NCBI GenBank assembly: GCA_001784435.1
Contig: MFQZ01000005.1
Coordinates: 25,015-89,014 of the forward strand
Origin: Candidatus Magasanikbacteria bacterium RIFOXYC2_FULL_42_28
GTDB lineage: Bacteria; Patescibacteriota; Patescibacteriia; Magasanikbacterales; GWA2-37-8
Reading direction: 5' to 3'
Length of the DNA: 64,000 nucleotides
The notes below the pieces were generated by a model. That model saw nothing but the letters and a program-made list of their open reading frames with translations. It was not told the DNA's origin and ran no database searches. Both the position numbers and the translations under genes were made by a program. Below, piece after piece: positions 2,287-57,510 of this stretch. Within the stretch, counting starts at the first letter, position 1, and each line of letters starts with the position of its first letter.

Positions 2287-2380
2287 TGTCATTCCGACCG
2301 AGCCGCAGGCGAGTGGAGGAATCCCTTAAAGTTATTATTACGTAAAGGGATCCCTCGGCTACGCTCGGGATGACAATTGA
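2287..2380. repeat. Palindromic element family A copy (termini GTCATTCCGAC...CGGGATGACAA), intergenic
   Basis: Terminal inverted repeats plus internal GGAATCCCTT/AAGGGATCC inverted repeat. Homologous to copies at 15373, 16937, 20057, 24735, 31913 and 57424. Confidence 0.8.
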
Positions 2381-2449
2381 AAAATGAATTAAAACGAGCC
2401 CACGTGGGGTTCGTTATTTGCTATATTATAGCACGATTTTGGGGTTTTG

Positions 2450-2698
2450 TCAATGTTTGGCGCCAATAATTTTTTGTTTTTGAGCGCGCGACATTTTTTT
2501 TATTTTACTTTCCGCTTTAGTCGCGAGCGATCGATTTTTAATTTTTTTGGAATAAACTAATTTTACCGGCCGACGGGCGCGGGTATATTTCGCGCCTAAC
2601 TTTGAGGTGTTATGTTCATTTACTCTGCGCTCCAAATTTACGGTGATACCGGCATACAGTGTTTTGTCAGCGCATTCAAGGATATATAAAAAATACAT
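2450..2698 (-). CDS. GIY-YIG nuclease family protein (YhbQ/UPF0213-like)
   Basis: YILECADKTLYAGITVNLERRVNEHN matches the GIY-YIG core of small UPF0213 proteins. Confidence 0.8.
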   Translation of the reverse strand: MYFLYILECADKTLYAGITVNLERRVNEHNTSKLGAKYTRARRPVKLVYSKKIKNRSLATKAESKIKKMSRAQKQKIIGAKH

Positions 2699-2699
2699 A

Positions 2700-2818
2700 C
2701 TTTAATAATTTCAAAATCCAAATTTCCAATTTCCAAAATAATGTCAAAGTTCAAAATTTGGAATTTGTTATTTGAGCTTGATTGGAAATTGGATATTGGA
2801 AATTTGACATTTTGCCAT
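2700..2818. repeat. AT-rich palindromic intergenic repeat (TTTCCAATTTCCAA / TTGGAAATTGGA arms, TTGACATT motifs), copy R1
   Basis: Shares 5' arm AATTTCAAAATCCAAATTTCCAATTTCCAA with copies at 20845 and 22150. Arms are reverse complements. Confidence 0.7.
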
Positions 2819-2832
2819 AATTACAGGATTGA

Positions 2833-3231
2833 TTATTCTAACGAATGACGCAAAATTTTTAATCGTGAATGAATTTTCTTAGCTTCCAACCGTTTTATTT
2901 TCGAGCTGTAAGTCGGACGCGTCGGACGGCGTTTTTTGGGAATTTGTAAAGCGCGCGCGACCAAAGTTTGCAAACGCGCTACTGCCGTTGCCCGATTTTG
3001 CGGTTGTGACCGTTCTTCTTCGGCCATTATCACCACTTCGTCAAACCAATTTATTTTATTTTTTAATTTCGCGCGCACCCGTTCTTTTTGCTCGGCGCTT
3101 AAAACTTGCGATCGCCCCACCGACCAATGCAAAATTGCCTTAGTCGCGGTTTTATTAACATTTTGCCCACCCGCGCCGGATGAGCGCGCGTAGGTTATTT
3201 TGATTTCGTTTACAGGGATATGGACACCCAT
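2833..3231 (-). CDS. arfB: Peptidyl-tRNA hydrolase ArfB-like (class I release-factor GGQ domain protein)
   Basis: SSGAGGQNVNKTATKA GGQ motif plus basic C-terminal tail. Start moved to the internal Met (MGVHIP) because the upstream 44 codons overlap a promoter region and look spurious. Confidence 0.7.
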   Translation of the reverse strand: MGVHIPVNEIKITYARSSGAGGQNVNKTATKAILHWSVGRSQVLSAEQKERVRAKLKNKINWFDEVVIMAEEERSQPQNRATAVARLQTLVARALQIPKKRRPTRPTYSSKIKRLEAKKIHSRLKILRHSLE

Positions 3232-3547
3232 AAAAAAATACTTAAGGCAAATCCGTTTTCTTGCGCGTTCTTTTGCTCGCCCCCACCGGATCACGAAAAT
3301 TTCTTGGCGTCGCGCGCAATTTTTTCGCGTCAAAGCCTCGACCGCTCGCTGGTTTCGCCTCATCGGTTTTATCTTCTTTTGCTTTTGCGGATTTTTTAAT
3401 CTGATCTAATTGTTTTTTATACCATTTCATATAAATTTGGTTTATATCCAATTAAGTATAGCAGTTTTATGGTAAGTTTACAATTAAAGTGGCGTAAACT
3501 ACCAACCTCTGCTATAATATGGGCAAGTTAATTCACATAGATATACT

Positions 3548-4165
3548 ATGAACGAAAACATCAAGGAAATCCTAGAAAAAATAAGTAATCTTAATAAGGA
3601 ACTATCCGCCAAATACGCCCAGCTTGCTGAAAAATACGGCTTTCATTTTGCCAATAAAAAAGTGGTCTTTTTGGAAGAATTTCGTAAGCGCAATCTAAAA
3701 TTTAGAATTCCGGTATGGAAATATGTTTTTCCGCGCAATTTTCGGCATTTGTTATCTTTGCCGTTTATTTACATGATGATCGTGCCGGTGGTTATTCTTG
3801 ATATTTTTATTACTATTTATCATACGGTCGCGTTTCCGCTCTATCATATTCCCAAAGTCAAGCGCGGTGATTTTATTGTTTATGACCGGAAATTTTTGGA
3901 TTATTTAAATATTATTCAAAAAGTCCACTGCATCTATTGCACCTATGTCAACGGCCTATTCGCCTACGCGGTCGAAATCGCCGGTCGGACCGAACGCTAC
4001 TGGTGTCCGATAAAATCCGCCCACAAACCCAAATTCCACCACGGCTGGTATAGCGAATTTGCCGATTATGGCAGTCCGGAGGAGTGGAAGGAGAAGTTTA
4101 ATGATGAAAAGGCGTTTGCGGGGTTGTGCGAGAACGATAAAAATAATAAAGACACACAATCTTAA
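3548..4165 (+). CDS. Hypothetical membrane protein
   Basis: ORF with a hydrophobic segment LLSLPFIYMMIVPVVILDIFITIYHTVAF. No recognised domain. Confidence 0.4.
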   Translation: MNENIKEILEKISNLNKELSAKYAQLAEKYGFHFANKKVVFLEEFRKRNLKFRIPVWKYVFPRNFRHLLSLPFIYMMIVPVVILDIFITIYHTVAFPLYHIPKVKRGDFIVYDRKFLDYLNIIQKVHCIYCTYVNGLFAYAVEIAGRTERYWCPIKSAHKPKFHHGWYSEFADYGSPEEWKEKFNDEKAFAGLCENDKNNKDTQS

Positions 4166-5425: not shown

Positions 5426-6460
5426 CTATCGGCTTTTAAATTCTCCCACAATCGCTTCCAAGATATCGTGAAAACTAATAATTCCAACGACCTTATTTGA
5501 TATTTTTTCGGTGATGAGCGCGATACTAATTGACGATCCTTTTAGGCGTTCAATAGCCACAAGCGACGGCACATCCGCGTCAATGCGCATCACCGGTTGC
5601 ACAAGTGATTTTAAATTAATATTCTCCAAACCGCCATCAAACAAATGGGTCAAAATATCTTTGGCTTCTACTGCTCCCAAATTTTTATCAATCTCGCCCG
5701 CGCATACCGGAAAAACTGAGCGATCACTGCTGGTGATTTTTTTTCTGACAATCGCAATCGGGTCACCTATATCCAGCCAAACAACCTCGCCACTATTGGT
5801 CATAAAATCTTTGATCGGTCGATTGCCCAAATAGAAAATGCTTTCCACCATTTTTTGTTCCGATCTTTCAAAGACGCCATTTTCCGCACCCTCCGCTATC
5901 AAGAGTTTTATTTCTTCTTCGGTAACAAATTGCTCCGAGACCGGTTTTACTCGTAGTAATTTAAGCAATAGGGCGGTGGAATAAGTTAAAATTTTTACAA
6001 ACGGCGCGGCGATTTTCATTATTGTTTTTATGGGACCGGCTACTTTTAACGCTAATTTTTCCGGATTAGATAGGGCGATTTGTTTGGGAACAAGTTCGCC
6101 GATGATAAGGGACAAATAGGTGATAACAATGACAACTAAAATTACACTTAGCGATTCACTATAACCTGTAAAAAAATTAAATTGAGCAAAATAAATTTCC
6201 AAATGTTCAGCCACAGTCGCGCCCCCAAAAGCACCGGCGAATATTCCAATAATCGTAATGCCAATTTGAATAGCCGAGAGCATCTCCGGCGATTTACGCG
6301 TTAATGATAGGGCATTTTGCGCCTGCCTATTTCCTTGTTTTGCCAAATGGCGCAGGCGACTTTTTTTAACACTAAGCAGGGCGATTTCCGACAAAGAAAA
6401 ATAACCGTTTAGAATAATTAAGGCGATTATTAAAATTAGTTCAATGAGAATAGTGGGCAT
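5426..6460 (-). CDS. CNNM/CorC-family transporter (DUF21 transmembrane domain + CBS pair + CorC_HlyC)
   Basis: Four N-terminal TM helices followed by tandem CBS-like segments. Characteristic hemolysin/CorC family architecture. Confidence 0.8.
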   Translation of the reverse strand: MPTILIELILIIALIILNGYFSLSEIALLSVKKSRLRHLAKQGNRQAQNALSLTRKSPEMLSAIQIGITIIGIFAGAFGGATVAEHLEIYFAQFNFFTGYSESLSVILVVIVITYLSLIIGELVPKQIALSNPEKLALKVAGPIKTIMKIAAPFVKILTYSTALLLKLLRVKPVSEQFVTEEEIKLLIAEGAENGVFERSEQKMVESIFYLGNRPIKDFMTNSGEVVWLDIGDPIAIVRKKITSSDRSVFPVCAGEIDKNLGAVEAKDILTHLFDGGLENINLKSLVQPVMRIDADVPSLVAIERLKGSSISIALITEKISNKVVGIISFHDILEAIVGEFKSR

Positions 6461-6507
6461 AGCAAATTTACTTTTTGTTTAATTTTTTATCGTTTAAATA
6501 ATCATTT

Positions 6508-6864
6508 TTACTGAAATAATTTAAGCCAATTTACTACTTCCACATAAATTAACGCTAAAACAAAAAAAACACCAAGGCCGAGCAAAATTGCTTTGTGCGC
6601 GCCAATTTTAGATGAAAAATAAGCAACCGTGAGCATATATGGTATCCAAGAAATTATCGTGCCCCAAAGCACAAACCAGGCATGTTGTCCAACTGCCACG
6701 CCACCTTTGGATTCACCAATAAAAATGTATGCCACTAAAGTAAAAACCGGAATTAAAGTGGCAAATCCCGACAGTAGGCGGAAATTGTTCTCTTCCAGCA
6801 TTACAATAATAGTGGTAAAAATTCCGCCAGCGAGAAAATAAAACGTCAGATTAAATAAATTCAT
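6508..6864 (-). CDS. Hypothetical small integral membrane protein
   Basis: Four predicted TM helices, no motif. Confidence 0.4.
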   Translation of the reverse strand: MNLFNLTFYFLAGGIFTTIIVMLEENNFRLLSGFATLIPVFTLVAYIFIGESKGGVAVGQHAWFVLWGTIISWIPYMLTVAYFSSKIGAHKAILLGLGVFFVLALIYVEVVNWLKLFQ

Positions 6865-6869
6865 AAAAA

Positions 6870-7400
6870 CTAACTATTATTAAAAAACAACGAATAAACA
6901 AACGATGTAATTATATCCGCGTCCGGCCCGTGAGCGATTGCTCCACCCAGTGCTCCCGTAAAACTAAGTAATATCGCGCCCAGTATTGATAATAAAACAA
7001 GTATAGGTTGTTTCGTAATTATACCAACGATAGGGGATAGTATTTTTAAAATTTTCTGAACAAAAAAATTACTTTGCGCTAACGCCACTACCTTGGGCAA
7101 TTTTTCTAAAAATTGAATTGAAAACGCGCCGGCCAAGATTGCATAAACCCAAATTGTCGCTCCCGCGAAAGTGGCGTGCAGTTCCACTAAGGCGCGGTTA
7201 AATCTTCTGGTTTCTTCCAGACTATCGCCACTGGAAAATGCCAACAAAGCGCCGAGAACACCAATCACAAGCATTAAATATTTCCCAGCGTTAAGCTTTT
7301 CCCGATAACTTGGAAAAAATACCAAACCAAATTCTATTAAACTATAAACGACGAGTAGGCCAATAGGGATGTGGACTATGGCCGCGTGAAGTGGGCCCAT
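6870..7400 (-). CDS. Hypothetical integral membrane protein (DUF2231-like)
   Basis: Multiple TM helices and an AHGPDADI motif. Confidence 0.4.
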   Translation of the reverse strand: MGPLHAAIVHIPIGLLVVYSLIEFGLVFFPSYREKLNAGKYLMLVIGVLGALLAFSSGDSLEETRRFNRALVELHATFAGATIWVYAILAGAFSIQFLEKLPKVVALAQSNFFVQKILKILSPIVGIITKQPILVLLSILGAILLSFTGALGGAIAHGPDADIITSFVYSLFFNNS

Positions 7401-8622: not shown

Positions 8623-8706
8623 ATATAATTCAATTATTTAAATTTTTTTAGTGCTATGTTATTCTATCATAGTTTTTAGAGTTTGGGAATCGTAATTTGT
8701 GTATAA

Positions 8707-8747
8707 AAAAATTCCGCTTACTTTAGCGAAATTTTTTGACCGCTCGT
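8707..8747. repeat. 41-bp direct repeat copy 1 (AAAAAATTCCGCTTACTTTAGCGAAATTTTTTGACCGCTC)
   Basis: Near-identical copy at 9393..9435 (2 mismatches). Contains a small hairpin CGCT..AGCG plus T-run. Confidence 0.7.
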
Positions 8748-9281: not shown

Positions 9282-9392
9282 TAGATATAGGGAACGAACC
9301 GATGGATAATTAAAAAACGCTGATATATTATCGGTGTTTTTTGTTGAAATAATTTTTATAAAGAAGTTCGGAAACCATAATTTAGTAATAAA

Positions 9393-9451
9393 AAAATCCG
9401 CTTGTTTTAGCGAAATTTTTTGACCGCTCCCAGGGTCGGATTTACCCCTAC
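9393..9451. repeat. 41-bp direct repeat copy 2 fused to a 17-bp duplicate of the tRNA-Asn 3' end (GCTCCCAGGGTCGGATT)
   Basis: GCTCCCAGGGTCGGATT recurs at 9534..9550, which is the 3' end of the tRNA gene. Looks like an att-site duplication. Confidence 0.6.
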
Positions 9452-9534
9452 GCTACGCTTCGGGGCATAAACTTCTCATCCGTCTCACGGAATATAATTA
9501 AAAACAGGACAAAATGCCCTGTTTTTTAATTATG

Positions 9535-9606
9535 CTCCCAGGGTCGGATTCGAACCGACGACCAACTCGTTAACAGCGAGCTGCGCTACCGCTGCGCTAC
9601 CTGGGA
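9535..9606 (-). tRNA. tRNA-Asn (anticodon GTT)
   Basis: Cloverleaf deduced by hand: acceptor TCCCAGG/CCTGGGA, D-arm GCGC-AGCGGTA-GCGC, anticodon loop CTGTTAA, T-arm GTCGG-TTCGAAT-CCGAC, discriminator G. CCA not encoded. Confidence 0.85.
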
Positions 9607-10838: not shown

Positions 10839-11657
10839 ATGTTTTACGCTATAATTTTAGGTATTGTCGAAGGCTTCACCGAATTTTTGCCAATTTCTTC
10901 TACTGGGCATATGATTTTGGTTGGGATGTGGCTCGGCACGGTTAATTCAGAATTTTGGAAAAGTTTTGAGATTGCGATTCAGCTCGGCGCAATTTTGGCC
11001 GTGGTCGTTTTATATTGGAAAAAAATTTGGGATGTAAAAAATGTTTGGCCGAAATTGTTGGTGGCGTTTTTGCCGACGGCGGTAATTGGGCTGGCGCTTT
11101 ATAAAATTGTTAAGCATTATTTATTGGGGAATGGTATGGTGGTGTTGGGGGCTTTGTTTATCGGCGGTGTCGTGATTATTTTGTTTGAGAGATATTATGA
11201 GAAAAAACACGCTTCGGAGGCAAATCAAACTTTAAGGGATTCCTCGACTTCGCTCGGAATGACAATTGATAGTTTTGAAAAAATTACTTATCGCCAAGCA
11301 TTTTACATCGGCCTATTTCAATCGATCGCGATTATCCCGGGCGTATCGCGCAGTGCGGCGACGATTATCGGTGGGCTCGCTTTAGGATTATCACGGCCGT
11401 TAATTATAGAATTTTCTTTTTTATTAGCCGTGCCAACTATGGCCGCGGCCACCGGACTGGATTTATTAAAAAGTGGCTTTAATTTTTCCGGCACAGAGTG
11501 GGGGATAATGGCTGTAGGATTTACCACTGCCTTTTTAACCGCTCTAGTTGCAATAAAATGGCTTTTGCGGTATATTACTAAGCACGACTTTACTATTTTT
11601 GGATGGTATAGGATCGCATTGGTCATGCTATGGCTAATTGTAATTTTAACTTTTTAA
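10839..11657 (+). CDS. uppP: Undecaprenyl-diphosphate phosphatase UppP/BacA, carrying an in-frame half-copy of palindromic element A
   Basis: EGFTEFLPISSTGHM signature. Residues DSSTSLGMTIDS are encoded by 11237..11272, which matches the right arm of family A. Confidence 0.9.
   Translation: MFYAIILGIVEGFTEFLPISSTGHMILVGMWLGTVNSEFWKSFEIAIQLGAILAVVVLYWKKIWDVKNVWPKLLVAFLPTAVIGLALYKIVKHYLLGNGMVVLGALFIGGVVIILFERYYEKKHASEANQTLRDSSTSLGMTIDSFEKITYRQAFYIGLFQSIAIIPGVSRSAATIIGGLALGLSRPLIIEFSFLLAVPTMAAATGLDLLKSGFNFSGTEWGIMAVGFTTAFLTALVAIKWLLRYITKHDFTIFGWYRIALVMLWLIVILTF
11237..11272. repeat. Family A half-element (GGGATTCCTCGACTTCGCTCGGAATGACAATTG) inside uppP, in-frame
   Basis: Identical right terminus CGCTCGGAATGACAA as the full copies. 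Translated as SLGMT. Confidence 0.75.
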
Positions 11658-11727: not shown

Positions 11728-12957
11728 ATGAAACAATCCCAACTATTCACCAAAACCACCAAGCAAATTTCCAAAGAAGAAGTTAGCTTAAACGCGCAAC
11801 TTTTACAGCGCGCCGGATTTGTAGAAAAACTAATGGCGGGTGCCTATACCTATTCACCGCTCGGCCTTAGGGTATTACGAAAAATTGAAAATATCGTGCG
11901 TGAAGAAATGAATAAAATCGGCGGGCAGGAAGTTTTGATGCCGATGCTCCACCCTAAAGAAAATTGGGTGACTACCGGTGGTTGGGATAGCATTGACATT
12001 TTATTTAAAGTGCCAAGCCGAACCGAAAAAGAATATGCTTTGGGCCAAAGCGAAGAAGAAATCGTAACGCCATTTGTAATGAAGCGGGTGAATACCTACA
12101 GAGAATTACCACTTGCCGTCTATCAAATTCATTGGAAATTTCGTGATGAATTACGCGCTAAATCAGGGCTGTTGCGCGGCCGCGAATTTCTGATGAAAGA
12201 CATGTATAGTTTTAATGAAGATCAAGCTGATTTTGATAGATTTTATGCTATTGCTAAACAAGCATATTTGGCCATATTCAAACGAATGGGGCTGACTGCC
12301 AAAGTTACCGAGGCCTCCGGCGGATCATTTAGTGAAAAAATTTCTTACGAATTCATGGTTTTAACAGACGCGGGTGAGGACGATATTTTATATTGTAGTG
12401 ATTGTGACTTTTGCGTGAACGTCGAAATTTCTAAACAAAAAATCGGTGAGACATGCTCGCGTTGTAATAAAGGTAAAATGGAGCGCGCGACCGCATCTGA
12501 AGTAGGCAATGTCTTTGACTTGGGCCAAAAGTATGGCAAGGCCTTTGATTTGGGTTTTATAGGGCGCGATGGCAAGAAACAATTTCCAGTAATGGGTTGC
12601 TATGGAATCGGAATTTCGCGCGCTATGGGTGTAATCGTTGAAAAAAATAATGACGCCAAAGGTATAATCTGGCCAGCATCGGTCGCGCCGTTTCAATATC
12701 ATTTAATTTGTTTGGGCGATGATGCGGAAGTTAAAGCGACAGCCGATAAATTATATGCCGATATGACCGCTCAAGGCAAAGAGGTTTTATATGATGACCG
12801 AGCCGACACAGGCGCCGGCGCGAAATTCGCGGACGCGGATTTGATTGGATTGCCGACGCGGTTAGTGATTTCAGCCAAGACATTAAAAGAAAATGCGGTG
12901 GAGGTCAAAAATAGAAATGAAGAAAAGGCGGAGTTATTGCCATTAAGCCAATTTTAA
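11728..12957 (+). CDS. proS: Prolyl-tRNA synthetase (short form, no editing domain)
   Basis: Class II aaRS motifs and ProRS-typical N-terminus MKQSQLFTKTTKQ...AGF. Confidence 0.85.
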   Translation: MKQSQLFTKTTKQISKEEVSLNAQLLQRAGFVEKLMAGAYTYSPLGLRVLRKIENIVREEMNKIGGQEVLMPMLHPKENWVTTGGWDSIDILFKVPSRTEKEYALGQSEEEIVTPFVMKRVNTYRELPLAVYQIHWKFRDELRAKSGLLRGREFLMKDMYSFNEDQADFDRFYAIAKQAYLAIFKRMGLTAKVTEASGGSFSEKISYEFMVLTDAGEDDILYCSDCDFCVNVEISKQKIGETCSRCNKGKMERATASEVGNVFDLGQKYGKAFDLGFIGRDGKKQFPVMGCYGIGISRAMGVIVEKNNDAKGIIWPASVAPFQYHLICLGDDAEVKATADKLYADMTAQGKEVLYDDRADTGAGAKFADADLIGLPTRLVISAKTLKENAVEVKNRNEEKAELLPLSQF

Positions 12958-12959
12958 TT

Positions 12960-13075
12960 TCAAATTTCCAATATCCAATGTCAAATCAATGTCAAAGCCA
13001 AAATATCAAATTTGATATTGGGATTTTGGATTTGGTTGGAAATTGGGAATTTTGATTTTGACATGATTAATATTT
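12960..13075. repeat. AT-rich palindromic intergenic repeat, copy R2 (inverted, diverged)
   Basis: TTTCCAATATCCAATGTCAAA...TTGGAAATTGGGAATTTTGATTTTGACATG shares motifs with R1, R3 and R4. Confidence 0.6.
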
Positions 13076-15372: not shown

Positions 15373-15472
15373 TGTCATTCCGACGACGAAGGAGGAATCT
15401 CTATCCCGTTAGTGATTTTACAGCCAAATGGAGATCTCCCGTCGGATGCGAATCCTCGCTCGGGATGACAAA
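15373..15472. repeat. Palindromic element family A copy, intergenic (iscS-nifU)
   Basis: TTGTCATTCCGACGACG...CGCTCGGGATGACAAATG termini. Internal GGAGGAATCTCTATCCC / GGAGATCTCC arms. Confidence 0.85.
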
Positions 15473-16633: not shown

Positions 16634-17395
16634 ATGGAAAAAGGCAAATTATACATCGTCGCCACGCCCATTGGGAATTTGGACGACATTACTTTACGCG
16701 CTTTAGCGACTTTAAAGAGCGTTGATTTTATTTTGTGCGAAGATACGCGCGTGACGAAAAATTTATTAGACCGGTATGAGATTGTGAAACCGACGATTTC
16801 GTATCATCAACATAGCGACGCGCGCAAGACCAAAGAAATTATTGAATTGTTAGAAAACGGTAAAAATTTGGCGTTAGTAACGGACGCGGGCACGCCGGGA
16901 ATTTCTGATCCGGGGAATTTGTTGATTGCCACCCTACTGTCATTTCGAACCCACGCAGTGGGTGAGAAATCTCCATCCCGTTCGCCCAACGACAATGGAG
17001 ATTCCTCGTCGCTTCGCTCGCTCGGAATGACAAATGACGACAAAGTACAAATTGTCCCCATTCCTGGCCCCTGCGCCGCTATCGCCGCCCTCTCTATTTC
17101 CGGCTTCCCAACTGACAAATATTTTTTCATGGGATTTCCGCCCCATAAAAATAAACGGCATAAATTTTTTCAAGAAGTTGCCACTGCCAAATACACTGTC
17201 GTATTTTACGAATCCGGCCATCGTATTACCAAATGCCTGACTGAATTACAAAAATTTTTAAAACCGGAACAAAAAATAATTATCGCCCGCGAACTTACCA
17301 AAAAATTTGAAACAATTTATCGCGGTACGGCTGGTGATATTGGTAATATGCAGGTGGAAGAACGAGGGGAGTTTACCGTGATAATTTCTAATTAA
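16634..17395 (+). CDS. rsmI: 16S rRNA (cytidine1402-2'-O)-methyltransferase RsmI, carrying a full in-frame copy of palindromic element A
   Basis: Tetrapyrrole-methylase fold motifs LYIVATPIGNLDDIT and DAGTPGISDPG. A ~33-aa insert TLLSFRTHAVGEKSPSRSPNDNGDSSSLRSLGMTNDD is encoded by element 16937..17037. Confidence 0.85.
   Translation: MEKGKLYIVATPIGNLDDITLRALATLKSVDFILCEDTRVTKNLLDRYEIVKPTISYHQHSDARKTKEIIELLENGKNLALVTDAGTPGISDPGNLLIATLLSFRTHAVGEKSPSRSPNDNGDSSSLRSLGMTNDDKVQIVPIPGPCAAIAALSISGFPTDKYFFMGFPPHKNKRHKFFQEVATAKYTVVFYESGHRITKCLTELQKFLKPEQKIIIARELTKKFETIYRGTAGDIGNMQVEERGEFTVIISN
16937..17037. repeat. Family A full-length element inside rsmI, in-frame
   Basis: CTGTCATTTCGAACCC...CGCTCGGAATGACAAATG. 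The reading frame is maintained through the element with no stop. Confidence 0.85.
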
Positions 17396-17495
17396 CTAAT
17401 TCACTAATTTCTAATAAAATACTAAATTCAAAAGATACTTAAAGCATTGGTAATTTTATTAGTTAATTAGCGAATTAGGCCTTAGCGAATTTTAA
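17396..17495. repeat. Palindromic intergenic repeat family C (arms TAATTCACTAATTTCTAATAAAAT / ATTTTATTAGTTAATTAGCGAATTAG)
   Basis: Second copy at 63268..63395 shares AATTAGTGAATTAGCGAATTAG and its reverse complement. Confidence 0.65.
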
Positions 17496-17504
17496 AATAT
17501 TTTT

Positions 17505-19582: not shown

Positions 19583-20515
19583 ATGATTATTGACACGCAC
19601 TGCCATATTCAATTTCGTGGTTATGATAACGACCGCGCCGAGGTTATTAAACGTTGTCGCGAAAAAGACGTAATAATGAACGCCGTCGGCACGCAAATTG
19701 ATACTAGTCGCGCCGCCGTGGAGTTGGCCGAAGCCAATCCGGATATTTACGCTACCATTGGTTTGCACCCCATTCATTTATTTACGACACGCGTGGACGA
19801 AGAAGAATCATCTTTCTTAAGTCGCGAAGAAAATTTTGATTACGACGCGTATAAAAAATTAGGGCAAAGCGAAAAAGTAATCGCAGTGGGGGAGTGCGGT
19901 TTGGAATTATTTCATATTCCGCCCGAAGCCGACCGGGAAGCGATTTTAAAAAAACAAAAAAACGTTTTTTTGTTACAAGTTAAACTGGCCCAAGAATTAA
20001 ATGTACCACTAGTCATCCATGTCAGAGATGCCTATGACGAGATGCTGGAATTGCTATTGTCATTGCGAGGAGCGCAGCGACGCGGCAATCCCACCGTTAA
20101 ATTGCCACCCTACGGGTGGTCTGCCGTAGGCATGACTTCGCCTTTGGCTCGCAATGACATTAAAGGCGTCGTCCACTGCTATTCCGGCAACTGGCGCCTG
20201 GCGCAAGGATTTTTGGACTTGGGATTATATTTAGGGTTTACTGGTGTGATCACTTTTCCACCCCGCAAAACCAACCCACAATCAACTTTGGATTTGCTGG
20301 AAGTCGTCAAAAATGCTCCACTGGATAGAATTTTAATAGAAACTGACTCACCCTATTTAGCCCCTCAAGCATATCGTGGTCAAAGAGCCGAACCGTGGAT
20401 GGCTATTGAAAATTTGCGTAAAATCGCGGAGATTAAAGGATTGGATATGGCCGAAGTAACTGAAGCTGTCTTAAATAACACAAAAAAAATATTTACAAAA
20501 ATCAAAAACTGTTAA
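19583..20515 (+). CDS. tatD: TatD-family metal-dependent hydrolase, carrying a full in-frame copy of palindromic element A (TGCGAG variant)
   Basis: DTHCHIQF, GLHPIH, VGECGLE, IHVRDA, HCYSG and ETDSPYL motifs. A 34-aa insert LSLRGAQRRGNPTVKLPPYGWSAVGMTSPLARND sits between the IHVRDA and HCYSG motifs. Confidence 0.85.
   Translation: MIIDTHCHIQFRGYDNDRAEVIKRCREKDVIMNAVGTQIDTSRAAVELAEANPDIYATIGLHPIHLFTTRVDEEESSFLSREENFDYDAYKKLGQSEKVIAVGECGLELFHIPPEADREAILKKQKNVFLLQVKLAQELNVPLVIHVRDAYDEMLELLLSLRGAQRRGNPTVKLPPYGWSAVGMTSPLARNDIKGVVHCYSGNWRLAQGFLDLGLYLGFTGVITFPPRKTNPQSTLDLLEVVKNAPLDRILIETDSPYLAPQAYRGQRAEPWMAIENLRKIAEIKGLDMAEVTEAVLNNTKKIFTKIKNC
20057..20160. repeat. Family A full-length element inside tatD, in-frame (termini TGTCATTGCGAG...CTCGCAATGACA)
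   Basis: Perfect 12-bp terminal inverted repeat. Internal CCACCCTACGGGTGG hairpin. 104-105 nt, so the frame is preserved. Confidence 0.85.
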
Positions 20516-20592: not shown

Positions 20593-20841
20593 ATGGAAAA
20601 TAAGCCAAAAACAAGCGACCGCGCTTATTATCTCTTTGCTTTGCGCATAGTTGGCGATTTTGGCGCATCCATTGCCGTGCCGGCGGTTTTAGCCGCTTTG
20701 GTTGGCAATTGGATTGATGAAAAATTTAGCACCTATCCGTTATTTGTCGCGTTATTTTTACTTGTCGCTGGTTTACTGACAGCTAAATCCATAATGAAAA
20801 AGGCGAAAAAATACGGAGAAGAATACGACCAATTAAAATAA
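20593..20841 (+). CDS. atpZ: AtpZ/AtpI-like small membrane protein preceding the ATP synthase genes
   Basis: Two TM helices. Position immediately upstream of atpB. Confidence 0.55.
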   Translation: MENKPKTSDRAYYLFALRIVGDFGASIAVPAVLAALVGNWIDEKFSTYPLFVALFLLVAGLLTAKSIMKKAKKYGEEYDQLK

Positions 20842-20844
20842 TTT

Positions 20845-20955
20845 CAAAATCCAAATTTCCAATTTCCAATCAAATCCAAAATCCCAATATCAAATTTGAC
20901 ATTTTGGCTTTGACATTTATTTGACATTGGATATTGAAAATTTGACATTTCGTTC
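20845..20955. repeat. AT-rich palindromic intergenic repeat, copy R3 (four TTGACATT iterations)
   Basis: AATTTCAAAATCCAAATTTCCAATTTCCAATCAAATCCAAAATCCCAATATCAAATTTGACATTTTGGCTTTGACATTTATTTGACATTGGATATTGAAAATTTGACATT, about 95% identical to R4. Confidence 0.8.
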
Positions 20956-22149: not shown

Positions 22150-22268
22150 TGTTTAAAATTTCAAAATCCAAATTTCCAATTTCCAATCAAATCCAAAATC
22201 CCAATTACAAATTTGACATTTTGGCTTTGACATTGATTTGACATTGGAAATTGGAAATTTAACATTAA
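22150..22268. repeat. AT-rich palindromic intergenic repeat, copy R4
   Basis: Near-identical to R3. Overlaps the track-predicted atpF start. Confidence 0.8.
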
Positions 22269-24726: not shown

Positions 24727-24734
24727 TTTTTATT

Positions 24735-24858
24735 GTCATTCCGAACGAATGTGAGGAATCTCCATCCCAATCACAAACCGAATGGAGATCCCTCGCTCGC
24801 CTTGGCGAAGCCTATCGGCGAAGCCAGGTCGACGCGAGTCTCGCTCGGGATGACAGTT
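24735..24858. repeat. Palindromic element family A copy, intergenic (atpA-atpG)
   Basis: TTGTCATTCCGAACGAATG...TCGCTCGGGATGACAGTTG. Internal GGAATCTCCATCC / GGAGATCCC arms. Confidence 0.85.
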
Positions 24859-31912: not shown

Positions 31913-32042
31913 TTGTCATTGCAAGCGAAGCGATCTCTCGTCAATTGTCATTTCGAATCCCCGTCGCAGGGGTGAGAAATCTCTGTCTTAAATAATTTTA
32001 CTAACCGGACAGAGATTCCTTCTTCGTCGTCGGAATGACAAC
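31913..32042. repeat. Palindromic element family A copy, intergenic, with duplicated left terminus
   Basis: TTGTCATTGCAAGCGAAGCG...TTGTCATTTCGAATCC...CGTCGGAATGACAAC. The internal pair GAGAAATCTCTGTC / GACAGAGATTCC is reverse-complementary. Confidence 0.8.
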
Positions 32043-35100: not shown

Positions 35101-35172
35101 TTTACATCCACGCCCGATAAAGAAACCTGCGCGAATTGTGATTTTCGCGATATTTGTGAATTTAGAAAATGA
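32155..35172 (+). CDS. UvrD/PcrA-family SF1 helicase fused to a C-terminal PD-(D/E)XK Cas4/AddB-like nuclease with Fe-S cysteines. Carries three in-frame repeat insertions
   Basis: Helicase motifs I AGAGTGKTT, II LVDEFQDTN and VI ALTRAK. C-terminal CPWQY...IDRID...IDYKTG...CANCDFRDIC (C-x(n)-CxxC-x5-C). Inserts at 32664..32712 (family A half) plus 34262..34350 and 34554..34603 (GC-rich family). Confidence 0.85.
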   Translation: MLNNTLNPAQLEAIKHTTGPLLIVAGAGTGKTTVIAEKIAYLVNTQKIPAKNILAVTFTEKATAEMSDRVSALLPDGGLDATVCTFHSLGRRILETHGLEVGLPNNFKVLNDIEAWLLVRQNLERFNLDYYRPLGNPAKFIHALLKHFGRCKDELITPEKYLAHAENLQLDGDSSSLPLARNDNDGESDALIQKRTAELSSAYHLYNQILLENDCLDFSDLIFYTVKLLRERPNILKIYQNIWPNILVDEFQDTNWAQYELIKLLAKGREDTVGLTVVGDDDQSIYKFRGASVANILQFSTDFPKSKQVVLTENYRSGQTILDYAHNFITLNNPDRLEAKLGLDKKLISATKKFATVEFSNPTSASAEGEEIAKNILALKKKNDLGWSDFAVLCRTHQIVDQILPSLTSRGIPTVSAGASGYLRTGAALNCLAAFKLADNYHESPAVYRLLNSVIYDLPYEDASKLALFVKRKSVSLYQAVKAGVNGEIKLSTAGQICTAKFLADTAKLSVDAKTEPAIKVLYNFLENSGYLKKLADAPEKNYRDIMALQALFDYLEKFQSDNPDTGVGAWLKYYEYALEAGETGEAEADSADGVPVLTIHSAKGLEFEYVFIPSLVDLRFPAVNRSEAIELPSELVNEKVLPEDDAHLEEERRLFYVALTRAKSGVFLSGAKDYGGAREKKLSRFVSELEKTNKVKLNDHSLTPSSERRGKATISPPARGGDEGAVRAITTPQTFSFSQISTYQSCPWQYRYKFILHIPTLGKGVFSFGHTLHLTLQKFYERLIALNSARQGELFDAPHISPPARGGDEEGVGAITVASLEELLELYRANWQDDWFYSAENKARYRAEGETILKNFYAINTKAGWTIPLGLETGFRFKVAGADFKGQIDRIDRQADGKIRLIDYKTGRPKTTLTFNDKLQLLVYQWAATSISALAQMGEIGTLSYFYLNDGTEMDFIGAEKDLAKTAATVEEIIKKIQARDFTSTPDKETCANCDFRDICEFRK
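32664..32712. repeat. Family A half-element inside the helicase gene, in-frame (encodes DSSSLPLARNDNDG)
   Basis: ATGGAGATTCCTCGTCGCTCCCGCTCGCTCGGAATGACAATGACG is nearly identical to the right half of the rsmI copy. Confidence 0.8.
34262..34350. repeat. GC-rich palindromic element (family GC), about 1.5 tandem copies, in-frame in the helicase (encodes TPSSERRGKATISPPARGGDEGAVRAIT)
   Basis: CCCCTCCTGCCCGAGGAGGGG hairpin. About 70% GC in an AT-rich gene. Homolog at 34554 and in grpE (55546). Confidence 0.75.
34554..34603. repeat. GC-rich palindromic element (family GC) copy 2, in-frame in the helicase (encodes ISPPARGGDEEGVGAIT)
   Basis: ATTTCTCCCCCTGCCCGAGGGGGAGACGAAGAGGGGGTGGGAGCAATCAC. Confidence 0.75.
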
Positions 35173-35917: not shown

Positions 35918-35990
35918 CTGTCACCCTGAGCTTGTTTCAGGATCTCCTGGATAACACGGGATGCTGAAATATATTCAGCATGACGATTAA
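35918..35990. repeat. Possible diverged family A-like element (GTCACCCTGAGC ... GCATGACGA)
   Basis: Termini resemble GTCATTCCGAGC/…GAATGACA. Internal AATATATTCAGCAT palindrome. Weak. Confidence 0.3.
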
Positions 35991-47728: not shown

Positions 47729-48493
47729 TTGAGTATAATAACTCTTACACTCAATTATAAATATCACATTATGCCCACAATTTCAAGATTAACCGCCGCC
47801 TCTATAATACTCCGCGAACCTGCTGAAAATTTGATATTTCAATTGCACAAAAATAAAGTGAGTCCAGAAAATATTGTTAATGAGATATACAAAAAAACTA
47901 AGATCCATATCAACCCGCGAACTATTCAAAAAATTCTCAAATTGCCAGTAACTGCCGGATCGCCAAACACTAATAATCAAAATTTGCTCTATAAAAAACC
48001 GATTGGCAAAGGCGAAGTCATATCGATAATACTTAATCAACCATTTAACGAATTACTAAAAAACCTATATATCTCGCAAAATATGACGGCGGCCGAAATA
48101 TCTGACGAGTTATTTAAAAAAACAAAAATACTAATTACAAATAGATCGATTGCTCGAAATTTAAAAAAACTGGGATTAATCAGGACACTAAGTGAAGCTT
48201 TTAATTTGGCAATTAAAACTGGGCGTAAATCCTACGTGCATCTACGAAGAACTAAGAAATCGATAGAACTACGCAAAGGTGTGCAGCTTAAAATGCGCTA
48301 TAACGTACTTCAAAGAGACAAATTTAGATGCGTATTATGCGGTAGAGACGCGAAAGATGATCGCCTTGAAATCGACCACATCGTCCCCGTCGTCGCCGGT
48401 GGTACGAATGACATAAAAAACCTTCGGACATTGTGCGCGGAATGTAATAAAGGCAAAATGTTGTTGGAGGAAAGACATATCATTGCACTATAA
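47729..48493 (+). CDS. HNH endonuclease with two N-terminal HTH-like repeats, atypical codon usage
   Basis: C-terminal CVLCGRD...EIDHIVPVVAGGTNDIKNLRTLCAECN HNH motif. Duplicated KKTKI(H/L)I(N/T)(P/N)R(T/S)I segments. Confidence 0.7.
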   Translation: MSIITLTLNYKYHIMPTISRLTAASIILREPAENLIFQLHKNKVSPENIVNEIYKKTKIHINPRTIQKILKLPVTAGSPNTNNQNLLYKKPIGKGEVISIILNQPFNELLKNLYISQNMTAAEISDELFKKTKILITNRSIARNLKKLGLIRTLSEAFNLAIKTGRKSYVHLRRTKKSIELRKGVQLKMRYNVLQRDKFRCVLCGRDAKDDRLEIDHIVPVVAGGTNDIKNLRTLCAECNKGKMLLEERHIIAL

Positions 48494-48498
48494 CTAAT

Positions 48499-49440
48499 AT
48501 GACCATAGAATTACCACACCTAGATGACTTTATCCTAAATCTAAAAGCCAACAACTTTTCCGATGAAACTGCCTATAACTATGAACGCGATCTAAATACT
48601 TTTGAAGATTTTTTAAGAGACGATATTAAGCAAAATTTTGAAAAAATTACAAAAACTGATATTTTGCGATACAAAGCATACCTGACCTCTACTGACAGAA
48701 AAACGGCAGAAAATCATAAATCTGAACAGAAATTAACGAGTTACTCAATAAACCGTGTTTTATCTGCTTTAAGATCATACCTAAAATTTTTGGAAGACAT
48801 GGATTATGACTCCCCTATTTCAGCTAATGCAATCAAGCTGTTAAAAACAGAAAAAAAACACGCTCGTGTACCGGAAATCAATGAAGTTTTAAAAATCTTA
48901 GAAGCACCGACAAAATACGAAGACAATTTGCAAGTTGGCATGCGTAATCGCGCCATGCTTGAAACTTTGTTTGCCACCGGTATGCGTATTTCAGAACTTT
49001 TATCACTTAAAGTTAATCAGATCGACAAAACCGGACGGGTATATGTGATGGGTAAAGGAAAAAAACAAAGATTTGTATATTTAACACCACGTGCTCTCAC
49101 TCACCTATCCAATTACCTAAAAATTCGCAACAGTACCTCTGAAATGCTATTTATCCCCTATCGCGGCAGAAATAACCAAGAAAAAAATAAAAGGATATCT
49201 ACAAATTATTTACAGTTTAAAATAAAAAGATATCGTGAATTATTAGATATCAATTTACCGGTAAGCGCGCATACTTTGCGCCATTGTTTTGCGACATATT
49301 TAGCCGAAAATGGTGCGAATCCGGCTGCTATTCAAATTTTATTGGGTCACGAGTCGCTTGATACCACCACGCGCTATGTTCACGCCTCTGATCGTTACGC
49401 TGAAAAAATTCACAATCAATTTCATCCTTTATTTAAATAA
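48499..49440 (+). CDS. Tyrosine site-specific recombinase (XerC/XerD / phage-integrase family)
   Basis: Catalytic R..HxxR..Y region: MRISEL, HTLRHCFATYL and LLGHESLDTTTRYVH. Confidence 0.8.
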   Translation: MTIELPHLDDFILNLKANNFSDETAYNYERDLNTFEDFLRDDIKQNFEKITKTDILRYKAYLTSTDRKTAENHKSEQKLTSYSINRVLSALRSYLKFLEDMDYDSPISANAIKLLKTEKKHARVPEINEVLKILEAPTKYEDNLQVGMRNRAMLETLFATGMRISELLSLKVNQIDKTGRVYVMGKGKKQRFVYLTPRALTHLSNYLKIRNSTSEMLFIPYRGRNNQEKNKRISTNYLQFKIKRYRELLDINLPVSAHTLRHCFATYLAENGANPAAIQILLGHESLDTTTRYVHASDRYAEKIHNQFHPLFK

Positions 49441-53927: not shown

Positions 53928-53975
53928 CACTTTAAGGGATTCCTCGTCGGCGCGAGCCTCGCTCGGAATGACAGT
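53928..53975. repeat. Family A half-element, intergenic (GGGATTCCTCGTCGGCGCGAGCCTCGCTCGGAATGACAGTCG)
   Basis: Right-arm terminus identical to the other copies. Confidence 0.75.
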
Positions 53976-54631: not shown

Positions 54632-54634
54632 ATT

Positions 54635-55300: not shown

Positions 55301-55314
55301 AGATTATTAATAAA

Positions 55315-55905
55315 TTATTTAGTAATAATTACTCTAGCGACTTTCAATACTTTGCCGCCGATTATATAGCCACCATCTACTTCTCTTAAAATTTCACCAT
55401 GTTCTTTGTCCTCAATTTCTTCATCACCCACGGCTTCATGTTTAGTCGGATCAAATTTTTCACCGACTGTTTTTATTTCTTCCACACCGTGCGCGGATAA
55501 AACATCCCCAAATTGTTTTTTGATATATTCAATTCCTTGCGCCCAACTCTCCCACCCCCTCTTTATCTCCCCCTCGGGCAGTGGGAGAGAGCCACTGACC
55601 GCGAACGCTTTTTTAAAATTATCGTAAACCGGAATAAACTCTTCCAAAATTTGCGCTTCGCTCATTCGCACCCATTCACCGCGACGCTTTTCCGTTTCAG
55701 TTTGTAAATTTTTGTAATCAGCCAAAGCGCGTTGCCAACCGAATTTATATTCGTCGCGCTCTTTTTCTAATCCTTCGCAATTTTGGCATTTTTTATGAAA
55801 AAAAGATTTTTTGATTGGCTCTGGTTCGGCCACAGCTTCGTCTTGAACTATATCAATTTGTTCTGCTTGTTCTTCATCTTTTTCGATTTTTGGTTCGTCA
55901 GACAT
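55315..55905 (-). CDS. grpE: Nucleotide exchange factor GrpE, with an in-frame GC-rich element insertion
   Basis: C-terminal GrpE beta domain (HEAVGDEEIEDKEHGEILREVDGGYIIGGKVLKVARV). Insert PLPEGEIKRGWES is encoded by 55546..55595. Confidence 0.85.
   Translation of the reverse strand: MSDEPKIEKDEEQAEQIDIVQDEAVAEPEPIKKSFFHKKCQNCEGLEKERDEYKFGWQRALADYKNLQTETEKRRGEWVRMSEAQILEEFIPVYDNFKKAFAVSGSLPLPEGEIKRGWESWAQGIEYIKKQFGDVLSAHGVEEIKTVGEKFDPTKHEAVGDEEIEDKEHGEILREVDGGYIIGGKVLKVARVIITK
55546..55595. repeat. GC-rich palindromic element (family GC) inside grpE, in-frame but read in a different frame than in the helicase
   Basis: Reverse complement GGCTCTCTCCCACTGCCCGAGGGGGAGATAAAGAGGGGGTGGGAGAG matches helicase copy 2 (CTGCCCGAGGGGGAGACGAAGAGGGGGTGGGAGC). 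Confidence 0.8.
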
Positions 55906-55908
55906 ACA

Positions 55909-56589
55909 TTAAATTAATTCCTTAATTTTATTCATTAACGCGTAATTGCGGGCGTAATCCATGCGCATGGGCCCGAGTAGTATCAATAAGCTTTCATCAC
56001 CAAAGCGAAACGCCGCCACGGACAATAAATTACCAAAACCATGCTCGGGGCCAAAAAAATATTTTATTTCGGTGGTTACTTCGTCCGAAAAATTTTCCAA
56101 ACAATCTTCACAGTGGTCAAAAATTTGCGTTACGTCAGCAACAAGCGCCAACTCGGAAAATTCCGGCTGAGAAAATAAATTGGAGAGACCGGTATAATAC
56201 ACCTGATCGGGAGAAAATGCCAATATCGCCGTAGCGTTGGAAAGCGCTGTTAAATTTTTTACTAAAACTTTTTGCGCGTTTTCTTTATCCGTGTCCGCCG
56301 AAACGCTCATCCCAAAAACATCGTTGTCTTTTTTGGTTAATTTTGCGCGTGCTAAATCCAAATTTTTCAAATAATAGCGATAGCCCTTTTCGGTTGGGAT
56401 TCGGCCGGCTGAAGTATGGGGATGTCTTAGATACCCCTGCTCTTCTAACTCGCGTAGTTCGTTGCGCACGGTGGCCTCTCCCCTGCCTAAATCACACTTT
56501 TCTACCAAAAAACGCGAGCCAATTGGTTCGGCCGTTTTAATATGGGTTTTAATGACGAGGTTTAAGAGTTCAGAGAGACGTTTTTCCAT
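55909..56589 (-). CDS. hrcA: Heat-inducible transcription repressor HrcA (short form)
   Basis: N-terminal winged helix (LNLVIKTHIKTAEPIGSRFL) typical of HrcA. Followed by grpE. Confidence 0.8.
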   Translation of the reverse strand: MEKRLSELLNLVIKTHIKTAEPIGSRFLVEKCDLGRGEATVRNELRELEEQGYLRHPHTSAGRIPTEKGYRYYLKNLDLARAKLTKKDNDVFGMSVSADTDKENAQKVLVKNLTALSNATAILAFSPDQVYYTGLSNLFSQPEFSELALVADVTQIFDHCEDCLENFSDEVTTEIKYFFGPEHGFGNLLSVAAFRFGDESLLILLGPMRMDYARNYALMNKIKELI

Positions 56590-56615
56590 ATTATCAGCGC
56601 ATTTTCGCTAAAAAA

Positions 56616-56642
56616 TTATCACTCATACTGTATGAGTGATAA
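56616..56642. promoter_or_regulatory. CIRCE-like inverted repeat TTATCACTCAT-actgt-ATGAGTGATAA upstream of hrcA
   Basis: 11-bp perfect arms separated by 5 nt. Arms share the CACTC/GAGTG core of the CIRCE consensus (TTAGCACTC-N9-GAGTGCTAA). 27 bp upstream of the hrcA ATG. Confidence 0.6.
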
Positions 56643-56837
56643 TATATACCTATTTAAATTTTTCGTCAAGAAGGAAGTTATCCACAGCGCTTCGCCTTCG
56701 GCTACGCCCTGTAAACTTTACTCTATATTTAATTTATTAGTAGTATGGTTTACCGGGCGCAACGCAGTGAAGCCGGGCCCTGTAAACTTTATATTCCAAA
56801 CAAAAAATTTATGGTGCGTAGCGTAGCGAAGAATCCA

Positions 56838-57413
56838 TTAATTCATCGCAATCTGCGAAATCTCGCTTAACAAGCAGTTTTCAACATAAATACCGCGCGC
56901 GTAAAAAATGCGTTCTAACTCGTTTTTTAATTCGGTTTCTACCGCGTCACGTTTTGGGCCGATAATATCAGTGTAATCAAACCGTGAAAATACCATGCGC
57001 ATACGACTTCTGATTGTCGGACGGACAATTTTGGCCACAAAATCTTCGCCAATAGTTTGCCAAATACTCGGAATCTGGTGCACATCTAAACGCAATAAAA
57101 TTGTGCCTTCCACGGCCACGCGCTTGCCATCTTGCGTAACAGCCGCGGTTGGAATATCACCCAAAGCCCGTTCATTTTCCGGTTTAAATTGGCGGTTAAT
57201 GCCGTATTCCAAGGTCTGGACATTAAACAATTTGGCCTTTTGCCAAAATGGAATTTTTAAATGCAACCCGGGGGTCAAAACCTTTTTTAGCACTCCTCTG
57301 CCCATATCATAAACACAGGCCACATAGCCCGGCGGGACGTAAATAAAAAAACCTTTTAAAACATCTTCGACGACGAAAGAATACATTAATTTGTCAAGAG
57401 AATCACCGGCCAT
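56838..57413 (-). CDS. SPFH/Band-7 (prohibitin-like) domain protein, short soluble form
   Basis: GYVACVYDMGRGVLKKVLTPGLHLKIPFWQKAKLFNVQTLEY resembles the SPFH core. Confidence 0.6.
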   Translation of the reverse strand: MAGDSLDKLMYSFVVEDVLKGFFIYVPPGYVACVYDMGRGVLKKVLTPGLHLKIPFWQKAKLFNVQTLEYGINRQFKPENERALGDIPTAAVTQDGKRVAVEGTILLRLDVHQIPSIWQTIGEDFVAKIVRPTIRSRMRMVFSRFDYTDIIGPKRDAVETELKNELERIFYARGIYVENCLLSEISQIAMN

Positions 57414-57423
57414 ATATAAAATA

Positions 57424-57510
57424 TTTATTTACTGTCATTCCGATGAAAATCGGAATCTCTGTTGACTTACAAATTGGACAGGGATCCCGATTTTCATCGG
57501 GATGACAATT
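57424..57510. repeat. Palindromic element family A copy, intergenic, near-perfect palindrome
   Basis: CTGTCATTCCGATGAAAATCGGAATC...GGGATCCCGATTTTCATCGGGATGACAATT. Confidence 0.85.

Follow-up and report, generated by a model that had tools for sequence, protein, structure and literature searches.

The window analyzed here, a 64,000-nt stretch of contig MFQZ01000005.1 of Candidatus Magasanikbacteria bacterium RIFOXYC2_FULL_42_28 (Patescibacteria, candidate phyla radiation (CPR)), carries a family of short palindromic elements of the form TGTCATTCCGA…TCGGAATGACA. Using the terminus motif TGTCATTSCRA (at most one mismatch, both strands) together with direct reading of the DNA, the family was found at 11 loci in the window (Table 1). 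Eighteen termini were observed where 5.2 were expected, a count that was not reached in any of 100 dinucleotide-preserving shuffles. Seven copies are complete head-to-head palindromes, three are truncated halves, and one is a complete copy of a diverged subfamily. The seven full copies and three right-arm halves listed in the initial annotation were thus recovered, whereas the copy at 35918, which had been counted there as a further half, turned out to be a complete dimer of another subfamily.

Table 1. Copies of the palindromic element in the window
Coordinates	Form	Location	Encoded peptide	Folding
2287-2375	full head-to-head dimer	intergenic; 10 nt 5' of ABC ATPase start, 75 nt 3' of UPF0213 GIY-YIG gene		-21.9 kcal/mol, z -4.8
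11229-11264	right-arm half	in frame in uppP (ORF 10839-11657)	…LRDSSTSLGMTI…	
15373-15470	full dimer	intergenic; begins 9 nt past stop of class-V aminotransferase (IscS-like) gene		
16938-17032	full dimer	in frame in rsmI (ORF 16634-17395)	LSFRTHAVGEKSPSRSPNDNGDSSSLRSLGMTN	
20058-20159	full dimer, ATTGCGA subtype	in frame in tatD (ORF 19583-20515)	LSLRGAQRRGNPTVKLPPYGWSAVGMTSPLARND	
24734-24855	full dimer, right arm enlarged	intergenic; begins 7 nt past atpA stop		
31914-31945 and 31946-32040	partial ATTGC-type left unit abutting complete dimer	intergenic; begins 13 nt past ABC transporter stop		
~32670-32704	right-arm half	in frame in UvrD-helicase/PD-(D/E)XK nuclease gene (ORF 32155-35172)	…DSSSLPLARND…	
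35918-35985	complete dimer, diverged subfamily (TGTCACCCTGA…TCAGGAT / ATGCTGAA…TTCAGCATGACG)	intergenic; 4 nt past stop codon, upstream of mreB		
53929-53973	right-arm half	intergenic		
57433-57507	most regular dimer	intergenic; 13 nt past yidC stop		z -8.2

Each arm consists of a TGTC tag, a hairpin that opens with ATTCC and closes with GGAAT, and a C-rich tail. Two arms face one another across a short central stem-loop that is conserved among the window dimers (CTCCATCC, CTCTGTC, CCTTAAAG). In all eight dimers the tags point outward, and no tandem pairs occur. The tag is TGTC at all 18 termini, and the right arm ending at 35985 bears CGTC. The elements measure 75-127 nt and have terminal inverted repeats of ~11 nt. 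Most arms keep the 5-bp ATTCC/GGAAT pairing with 10-22 nt in between that are partly self-pairing; a stem of 8-9 bp with a loop of 4-5 nt is present exactly only in both arms of 57433-57507 and in 35961-35985. Each arm of the 57433 copy reads TGTC + ATTCCGAT + GAAA + ATCGGAAT + CTC, with a stem of 8 bp and a loop of 4 nt. When folded as single strands, all full copies were more stable than their shuffled versions (z -3.4 to -8.2). A generic tag-plus-hairpin scanner performed no better than on shuffled sequence; it was too strict for the interrupted arms and was therefore replaced by the terminus motif. The elements matched no Rfam family at gathering or permissive thresholds. Direct reading revealed no target duplication flanking any of the seven full copies. 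No relatives closer than 73-92% nucleotide identity were found, so that the junctions and the lack of duplication at a fresh insertion are not fixed to the base. The half copies at 11229-11243 (uppP) and 53929-53943 (intergenic) share the left breakpoint ACTTTAAGGGATTCC, which suggests either a truncated form with fixed ends or repeated deletion at one point of the central stem.

The copies are strongly depleted from coding DNA: only 4 of the 11 lie within genes although the window is 88% coding (P = 6e-5). Five intergenic copies begin 4-13 nt past a stop codon. This distribution suggests an element that inserts widely and survives only where it is harmless. This placement also bears on the idea that intergenic copies are kept as structural signals in RNA or DNA, i.e. 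as 3'-end mRNA stabilizers, pause sites or modulators of DNA uptake or recombination, with the intragenic copies as by-products. Repetitive extragenic palindromic (REP) sequences do sit 3' of genes and affect mRNA (Di Nocera, De Gregorio & Rocco 2013, BMC Genomics 14:522, PMC3733652), and the NTS hairpins of Neisseria together with the nuclease SsnA, both treated below, lower transformation in N. meningitidis (Chenal et al. 2025, Nat Commun 16:2388, PMC11893778). The window copies, however, lack a T run and were not called in a terminator scan, the Rfam search gave no match, and spacer copies differ between close relatives, such that no individual copy looks conserved. We therefore consider maintenance as structural signals rather unlikely, and such a role would in any case be compatible with a selfish origin.

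The four genes harboring in-frame copies were identified by Pfam as BacA/UppP, TP_methylase (RsmI type), TatD and UvrD plus PD-(D/E)XK. The initial annotation had read these insertions and their peptides correctly (LSFR…GMT, LSLRG…ARND, …SLGMT and …LARND), and it was also right that two of the three forward frames are open at the right terminus while the third meets a TGA (TCG GAA TGA in …GGAATGACA). Its statement that every intragenic copy has a length of 0 mod 3 is either trivial or wrong, because the rsmI element core measures 95 nt; only the net gain over the closest available relative is in frame, amounting to 90 nt for rsmI and 84 nt for tatD. Likewise, the description of the hosts as essential genes found no support for any of the four. 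In Escherichia coli, rsmI, tatD and uvrD are dispensable and uppP is redundant.

Comparison with relatives and with solved structures indicated that the gene-internal copies are insertions in permissive loops. In L124/L125, the closest relative available, the genes from Rrf2 through the ATP synthase operon are arranged as in the window, and neither rsmI nor tatD contains the insert; its RsmI (222 aa) and TatD (281 aa) align nearly unchanged with the window proteins outside the loops. The DNA alignment to L125 breaks exactly at the element, with 33 nt in L125 versus 123 nt in the window for rsmI and 18 versus 102 nt for tatD. At the 24734 copy, the spacer of the relative is occupied by unrelated sequence; at the 15373 copy it is a run of N, so no empty-site comparison was possible. 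In structure alignments, RsmI residues 101-136 stand opposite residues 126-129 of E. coli RsmI, TatD residues ~160-192 opposite ~7 residues of Thermotoga maritima 1j6o, and the UppP segment has no counterpart in E. coli UppP 5oon. The loop region of UppP comprises 53 aa in the window versus a mode of 35-40 aa among 126 cluster representatives. The half copy of the UvrD-nuclease lies within query residues 119-199, a stretch unaligned to solved UvrD/PcrA structures.

AlphaFold2 models built on insert-free homologues gave a mean confidence (pLDDT) of 87.0 for RsmI and 90.6 for TatD, which dropped only across the inserts. Values for the RsmI insert were 69, 59, 49 and 70 in blocks of 10 residues, and this segment was modeled as coil between helix 94-108 and strand 139-143; TatD residues 167-190 scored below 50 and were modeled as coil between helix 151-166 and strand 195-198. 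Both inserts thus fall in coil predicted with low confidence. Loop lengths do vary in all of these protein families, as would be expected if the extra segments were ancestral loops. The closest relatives lack the inserts, however, and the DNA retains the full palindromic structure. An assembly artefact is argued against by the presence of an identical insert-bearing RsmI on contigs of several independent assemblies. Ancestral loops or artefacts are thus scarcely credible as explanations. Insert-free RsmI and TatD loops often resemble translated AT-rich repeats, for example DLGFRISDL encoded by TCAGATTTAGGATTTAGGATTTCAGATTTAG at L125 727-759, and likewise EIKNLKLEI and ELRTQNLELRT; that the "native" loops are themselves repeat-derived is speculative.

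To which known elements is the family related? Judged by anatomy, it can be placed in the CGTC-REP / dRS3-NTS / "Ssn-related motif" (SRM) superfamily, because its arms consist of a [C/T]GTC tag and an AT-starting hairpin with the tags on the outside. CGTC-tagged REPs carry CGTC, often TGTC or CCTC, at one end of the unit, followed by a stem of 8-9 bp opening with A-T and T-A, a loop of 4-5 nt and a short tail; they occur mostly as head-to-head dimers, in five phyla and without a dedicated transposase, and their families include Neisseria dRS3 and Rickettsia conorii RPE-4 and RPE-6 (PMC3733652). The window family shares the tag, the AT-opening stem, the short tail, head-to-head dimers 20-100 bp apart, the position just 3' of genes and the lack of an adjoining transposase. 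In-frame copies are a further common trait. Those tabulated for dozens of genes of R. conorii, Sphingomonas and others (SFPRKRES…DSRFRGND, CHSRESGNP, VIPAKAGI…IPAFAGMT, WILRSSRGMT; PMC3733652) include repair and tRNA- or rRNA-modification genes, begin with SF…, CH… or VI… and end with …GMT or …ND, and the window peptides use the same three left-hand and two right-hand frames. Differences are the stem ATTCCGA/ATTGCGA in place of ATTCCCGC, the 10-22-nt interruption of most arms in place of a 4-5-nt loop, the conserved central stem, and a host belonging to the Patescibacteria, whereas the five phyla of PMC3733652 are others.

The comparison with Rickettsia drawn in the initial annotation held insofar as palindromic repeats have entered conserved genes in frame and at loops. 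The accompanying claim that the family is sequence-unrelated to the Rickettsia elements did not, since the CGTC-REP superfamily includes RPE-4 and RPE-6 (PMC3733652). RPE-1 (Ogata et al. 2000, as cited in PMC3733652) is likewise described as palindromic and as lying in frame in conserved proteins, at sites where fold and function tolerate it. According to the same description it is longer and is listed apart from the CGTC-type RPE-4 and RPE-6, whose peptides were the ones compared here.

Representative genomes (one per species) were then scanned with the pattern TGTCATTCCGA-N(6-26)-GGAATC, and at least 120 loci matched. By a rough calculation, ~1,500 chance matches are expected in the 596 Gb covered, so that single matches prove little. 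Many of these loci showed the whole architecture of matching inverted arms and central stem, and they came from Acidobacteriota, Chloroflexota, Planctomycetota, Burkholderiales, Bacteroidota, Verrucomicrobiota and two CPR genomes. A paper describing CGTC-type repeats in CPR genomes was not found in the open-access literature, which is consistent with the earlier remark that nothing comparable was known from the CPR, and the host phylum appears to be new for the CGTC-REP/NTS superfamily. The family is not a new kind of element; it is a member of that superfamily from an apparently new host phylum and with a somewhat aberrant arm structure. In-frame intragenic copies of the superfamily and its likely cognate nuclease have already been described.

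This nuclease is SsnA, a GIY-YIG protein (cd10448) that binds the NTS hairpin CGTCATTCCCGCGMAVGCGGGAATCYRG and cuts beside it in single-stranded DNA only. Cleavage of single-stranded DNA beside such hairpins has been shown in Neisseria and for three further homologues, such motifs lie within 5 kb of 71% of ssnA homologues, and the NTS-ssnA-NTS arrangement has been likened to a domesticated insertion sequence (PMC11893778). The SRM definition requires that the repeats flank an ssnA homologue that belongs to cd10448 and matches N. meningitidis SsnA with E <1e-10. The window elements resemble this system in the CGTCATTCC…GGAATC hairpin with an oriented 5' tag; as set out below, the arrangement repeat-gene-repeat around a nuclease of ~95 aa was recovered independently at 3 genome loci, 9 of 10 plasmid loci and one probable CPR contig. 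The window elements differ in that the published SRM pattern misses them and that the window is without an Ssn gene; neither intragenic copies nor the CPR are mentioned by Chenal et al. 2025 (PMC11893778).

All-against-all clustering of the open reading frames (ORFs) beside the repeats at 120 of the matched loci returned only common housekeeping families and small GIY-YIG genes. In three unrelated phyla, Ssn-type genes lie exactly inside TGTC head-to-head dimers (L008 ~2020-2470, L017 ~1180-1700 and L035 ~6440-6915). A tblastn search of plasmids and chromids with one of these GIY-YIG proteins led to Rhizobium, Sinorhizobium, Sphingobium, Novosphingobium, Azospirillum and Neisseria, all known hosts of CGTC REPs, and at 9 of 10 plasmid or chromid loci the gene was bracketed by inverted CGTC, TGTC or CCTC units. 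The gene nested in such full-length relatives encodes a GIY-YIG nuclease of 95-107 aa. A closely similar arrangement was present on L148, where an Ssn-type gene at 1567-1945 (42% identity, E 3e-24, to a Neisseria SsnA homologue) is nested as TGTCATTCTGAGCAGAGCGAAGAATCTCTGTCC-[gene]-GGACAGAGATCCTTCACTGCGTTCAGGATGACA. Window copies 31946-32040 and 57433-57507 share the central stem of this dimer, CTCTGTCC/GGACAGAG, and a short way upstream on L148 there is a TGTCATTCCGA unit. On L148 and L017 the TGA of the right-hand terminus serves as the stop codon of the gene. On L211 (Azospirillum lipoferum plasmid AZO_p3), 350-1000 comprises a dimer-ssn-dimer unit between sufB and sufC within the operon, which looks like a discrete inserted module. 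A link between Ssn-type genes and such repeats cannot be claimed as new, as it was published in 2025 (PMC11893778).

The nested gene and the tag also bear on two conventional modes of transposition. Classical miniature inverted-repeat transposable elements, i.e. deletion derivatives of a DDE insertion sequence that are moved via their terminal inverted repeats, would resemble the window elements in size and in possessing such repeats. No target-site duplications flank the seven full copies, though, the termini belong to hairpins that bear a conserved tetranucleotide tag, the gene inside full-length relatives encodes a GIY-YIG nuclease rather than a DDE transposase, and a parent insertion sequence was seen neither in the window nor at the 120 matched loci examined. 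An origin of this kind is highly improbable.

A closer parallel is provided by REPINs, which were reportedly described by Bertels and Rainey in 2011 together with their RAYT transposases. As in REPINs, two inverted hairpins form the replicating unit, which is non-autonomous and long-lived and has a single cognate enzyme gene flanked by repeats; the REPIN/RAYT system combines a GTAG tag with a Y1 HUH transposase, whereas the elements studied here combine a TGTC tag with a GIY-YIG family. Mobilization by a RAYT of the IS200/IS605 type, as for the GTAG-tagged REPs of Pseudomonas and enterobacteria, would agree with hairpin dimers that lack a visible target duplication at the seven full copies and lie just 3' of genes. 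It is nevertheless very unlikely: the window tag is TGTC and no GTAG is present, no transposase domain, Y1 included, was detected among the ~50 window ORFs scanned, the clustering of ORFs beside 120 matched loci yielded no recurrent transposase, and CGTC REPs have never been found flanking RAYT genes (PMC3733652).

Could the GIY-YIG gene of the window itself encode the cognate enzyme? ORF 2450-2698 (minus strand, 82 aa) was identified as UPF0213 (PDB 1ywl, E 1.8e-17) and showed 29% identity (E 4e-7) to a Neisseria SsnA homologue. This candidate was rejected, because it is not an Ssn and the repeats are not associated with it in 80 orthologous CPR loci. The 75-nt distance between the gene and the 2287 dimer was treated as chance. 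The UPF0213 protein is 70-80% identical across many Patescibacteria lineages and thus unusually conserved for its size.

Taken together, the window copies are probably REPIN-like head-to-head pairs of TGTC-tagged hairpins of the CGTC-REP/NTS superfamily and gene-less derivatives of a dimer-Ssn unit. As non-coding and non-autonomous DNA, they would multiply within genomes. They would survive mainly in thin intergenic spaces, typically a few bases past a stop codon, and within a gene only if the frame stays open through the copy and the 12-34 extra residues are accommodated in a tolerant surface loop. The ancestral unit would have been a dimer of the same type enclosing a small Ssn-family GIY-YIG gene, and the copies would depend on an Ssn-type enzyme that is encoded elsewhere or was formerly present. 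Such an enzyme may make, move or exchange copies by acting in trans on hairpins that extrude where the DNA is single-stranded.

Several observations weigh against this interpretation. The SRM pattern HGTCWYN(0-2)YYVSBRHN(0-5)WNVSBRGN(0-2)RNCYNB had no match in the window on either strand, and the window units are therefore a variant outside the SRM search definition; most of their arms are interrupted in the stem or have 10-22 nt inserted where the loop of 4-5 nt would be. What has been shown for Ssn is the cutting of DNA, not its transposition, and no copying mechanism has been established for any CGTC REP. No Ssn gene is present in the 64-kb window, in which ORF 2450-2698 is the only GIY-YIG ORF. 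At the 80 orthologous UPF0213 loci, termini were not enriched (4 of 80 within 200 nt; 0.09-0.34 versus 0.18 per kb) and inverted repeats did not flank the gene (score 8.9 versus 8.8 for the control). L148, one of these 80 loci, is probably a CPR contig, going only by its 75%-identical UPF0213 gene. Finally, the insert replaced 4-8 native loop residues in every pair compared (window rsmI and tatD versus L125, L127 versus L128, P0018 versus P0060) and was not a simple addition. This loss of the loop tip is not predicted by plain insertion; the simplest account is insertion into, or replacement of, an earlier repeat, and later trimming or recombinational transfer of whole loop alleles may have contributed.

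The fate of these loops was followed in orthologues, using the 120 closest RsmI proteins, nearly all from Magasanikbacteria or other Patescibacteria, and 121 TatD proteins. At least 12 extra residues were present in the RsmI loop of 40 of the 120 proteins, and 34 of these 40 had repeat-type peptides at both ends. Among the TatD proteins, 49 of 121 had extra loop residues, which were repeat-type in 27 cases and of a G-rich type in 13 more. Inserts in the same loop belonged to differing subfamilies (VIASEAKQS…PRND, VIPAKAGIQ…RFRGND, VILSEAKNP…QDD, CHSE…) and used differing frames; thus, they cannot stem from one event. RsmI pairs that are 93-99% identical outside the loop differed in the presence or type of insert, i.e. 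there is presence/absence polymorphism between close relatives. Between L127 and L128 (~93% identical DNA), a 114-nt dimer plus 12 nt takes the place of 30 nt of native loop. One site was encountered in three states: empty in L221, with an ATTGC-type dimer in L220, and with a remnant ATCATTC… followed by an NTS-like dimer in L219. The most interesting aspect of the family, and apparently one not described before, is that the same protein loops are repeatedly occupied and turned over across CPR orthologues.

A possible explanation, although not the one we favor, is that most same-site inserts were acquired by homologous recombination, either as transferred loop alleles or by conversion of repeats, rather than by repeated de novo insertion. 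Outside the loop, the insert-bearing P0018 and the insert-free P0060 share 99% identity, but differences between them extend to the residues directly adjoining it, and P0013, at 89% identity, has an insert nearly equal to that of P0018. Replacement of the native loop rather than its lengthening points in the same direction, and dRS3 repeats have been proposed as recombination substrates (PMC11893778). Against this, the different subfamilies and frames (VI…, CH…, SF…) at one site still call for several independent origins, and divergence in the L127/L128 flanks does not exceed that of the remaining gene. That different subfamilies recur in one loop is best explained by three factors acting jointly: selection for sites that tolerate an insert, preferential insertion into or replacement of a repeat already present, and recombinational transfer of loop alleles. 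A bolder proposal, about which we are doubtful, is that a few protein loops serve as landing pads in Magasanikbacteria and related CPR, with the linker between the RsmI domains and the TatD loop following helix 5 as two examples. Different subfamilies would repeatedly overwrite such loops by an Ssn-dependent single-strand mechanism that targets hairpins, in which repeats enter repeats and the native tip is lost.

Other repeats were also observed in the window. A second, unrelated hairpin repeat, TCTCCCCCTGCCCGAGGGGGAGAcGAAGAGGGGGTGGGAG, lies in frame at 34297-34346 and 34555-34604 in the UvrD-nuclease ORF 32155-35172 and at 55549-55588 in the grpE ORF 55315-55905 (minus). Its translation is ISPPARGGDE(G/E)… at both sites in the nuclease domain and SLPLPEGEIKRGWES in GrpE; in other CPR orthologues of RsmI and TatD, the hot-spot loops contain similar G-rich peptides (SPLFKEGIEG…, LPLDKGRQGG…). 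A third family consists of AT-rich palindromes of ~113 nt (AATTTCAAAATCCAAATTTCCAATTTCC…) at 2702-2813, 12954-13070, 20837-20950 and 22154-22268, which are at most 92% complementary between copies and all intergenic, one of them directly upstream of the UPF0213 gene. The two members of an AT-rich inverted repeat pair (CTAATTAACTAATTCACTAATTTCTAATAAAATA…), at 17388-17498 and 63283-63384, are 79-89% complementary and lie just 3' of rsmI and of ORF 61023-63266. Direct repeats of 68 nt at 8678-8745 and 9362-9429 (78% identical), each ending in a hairpin and a T run, occur in a gene-poor stretch around tRNA-Asn (9534-9606). The region 47729-49440 encodes a protein with an HNH endonuclease domain directly 5' of a tyrosine recombinase of the XerC/D type.

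The results extend the CGTC-REP/NTS-Ssn system to the candidate phyla radiation, whose members are episymbionts thought to depend on DNA uptake, and this occurrence fits the reported enrichment of the system in symbionts. For annotation they mean that repeat-derived segments, present in a third or more of the RsmI and TatD orthologues of this CPR clade, inflate the apparent divergence of these proteins and give rise to spurious small ORFs. The near-identical alleles, with their replaced loop tips and remnants of one repeat beside another, offer material for inferring the copying mechanism. If such loops really were landing pads, they would keep furnishing otherwise highly conserved proteins of streamlined symbionts with new translated peptide segments and would leave a natural record of how CGTC-type repeats move.

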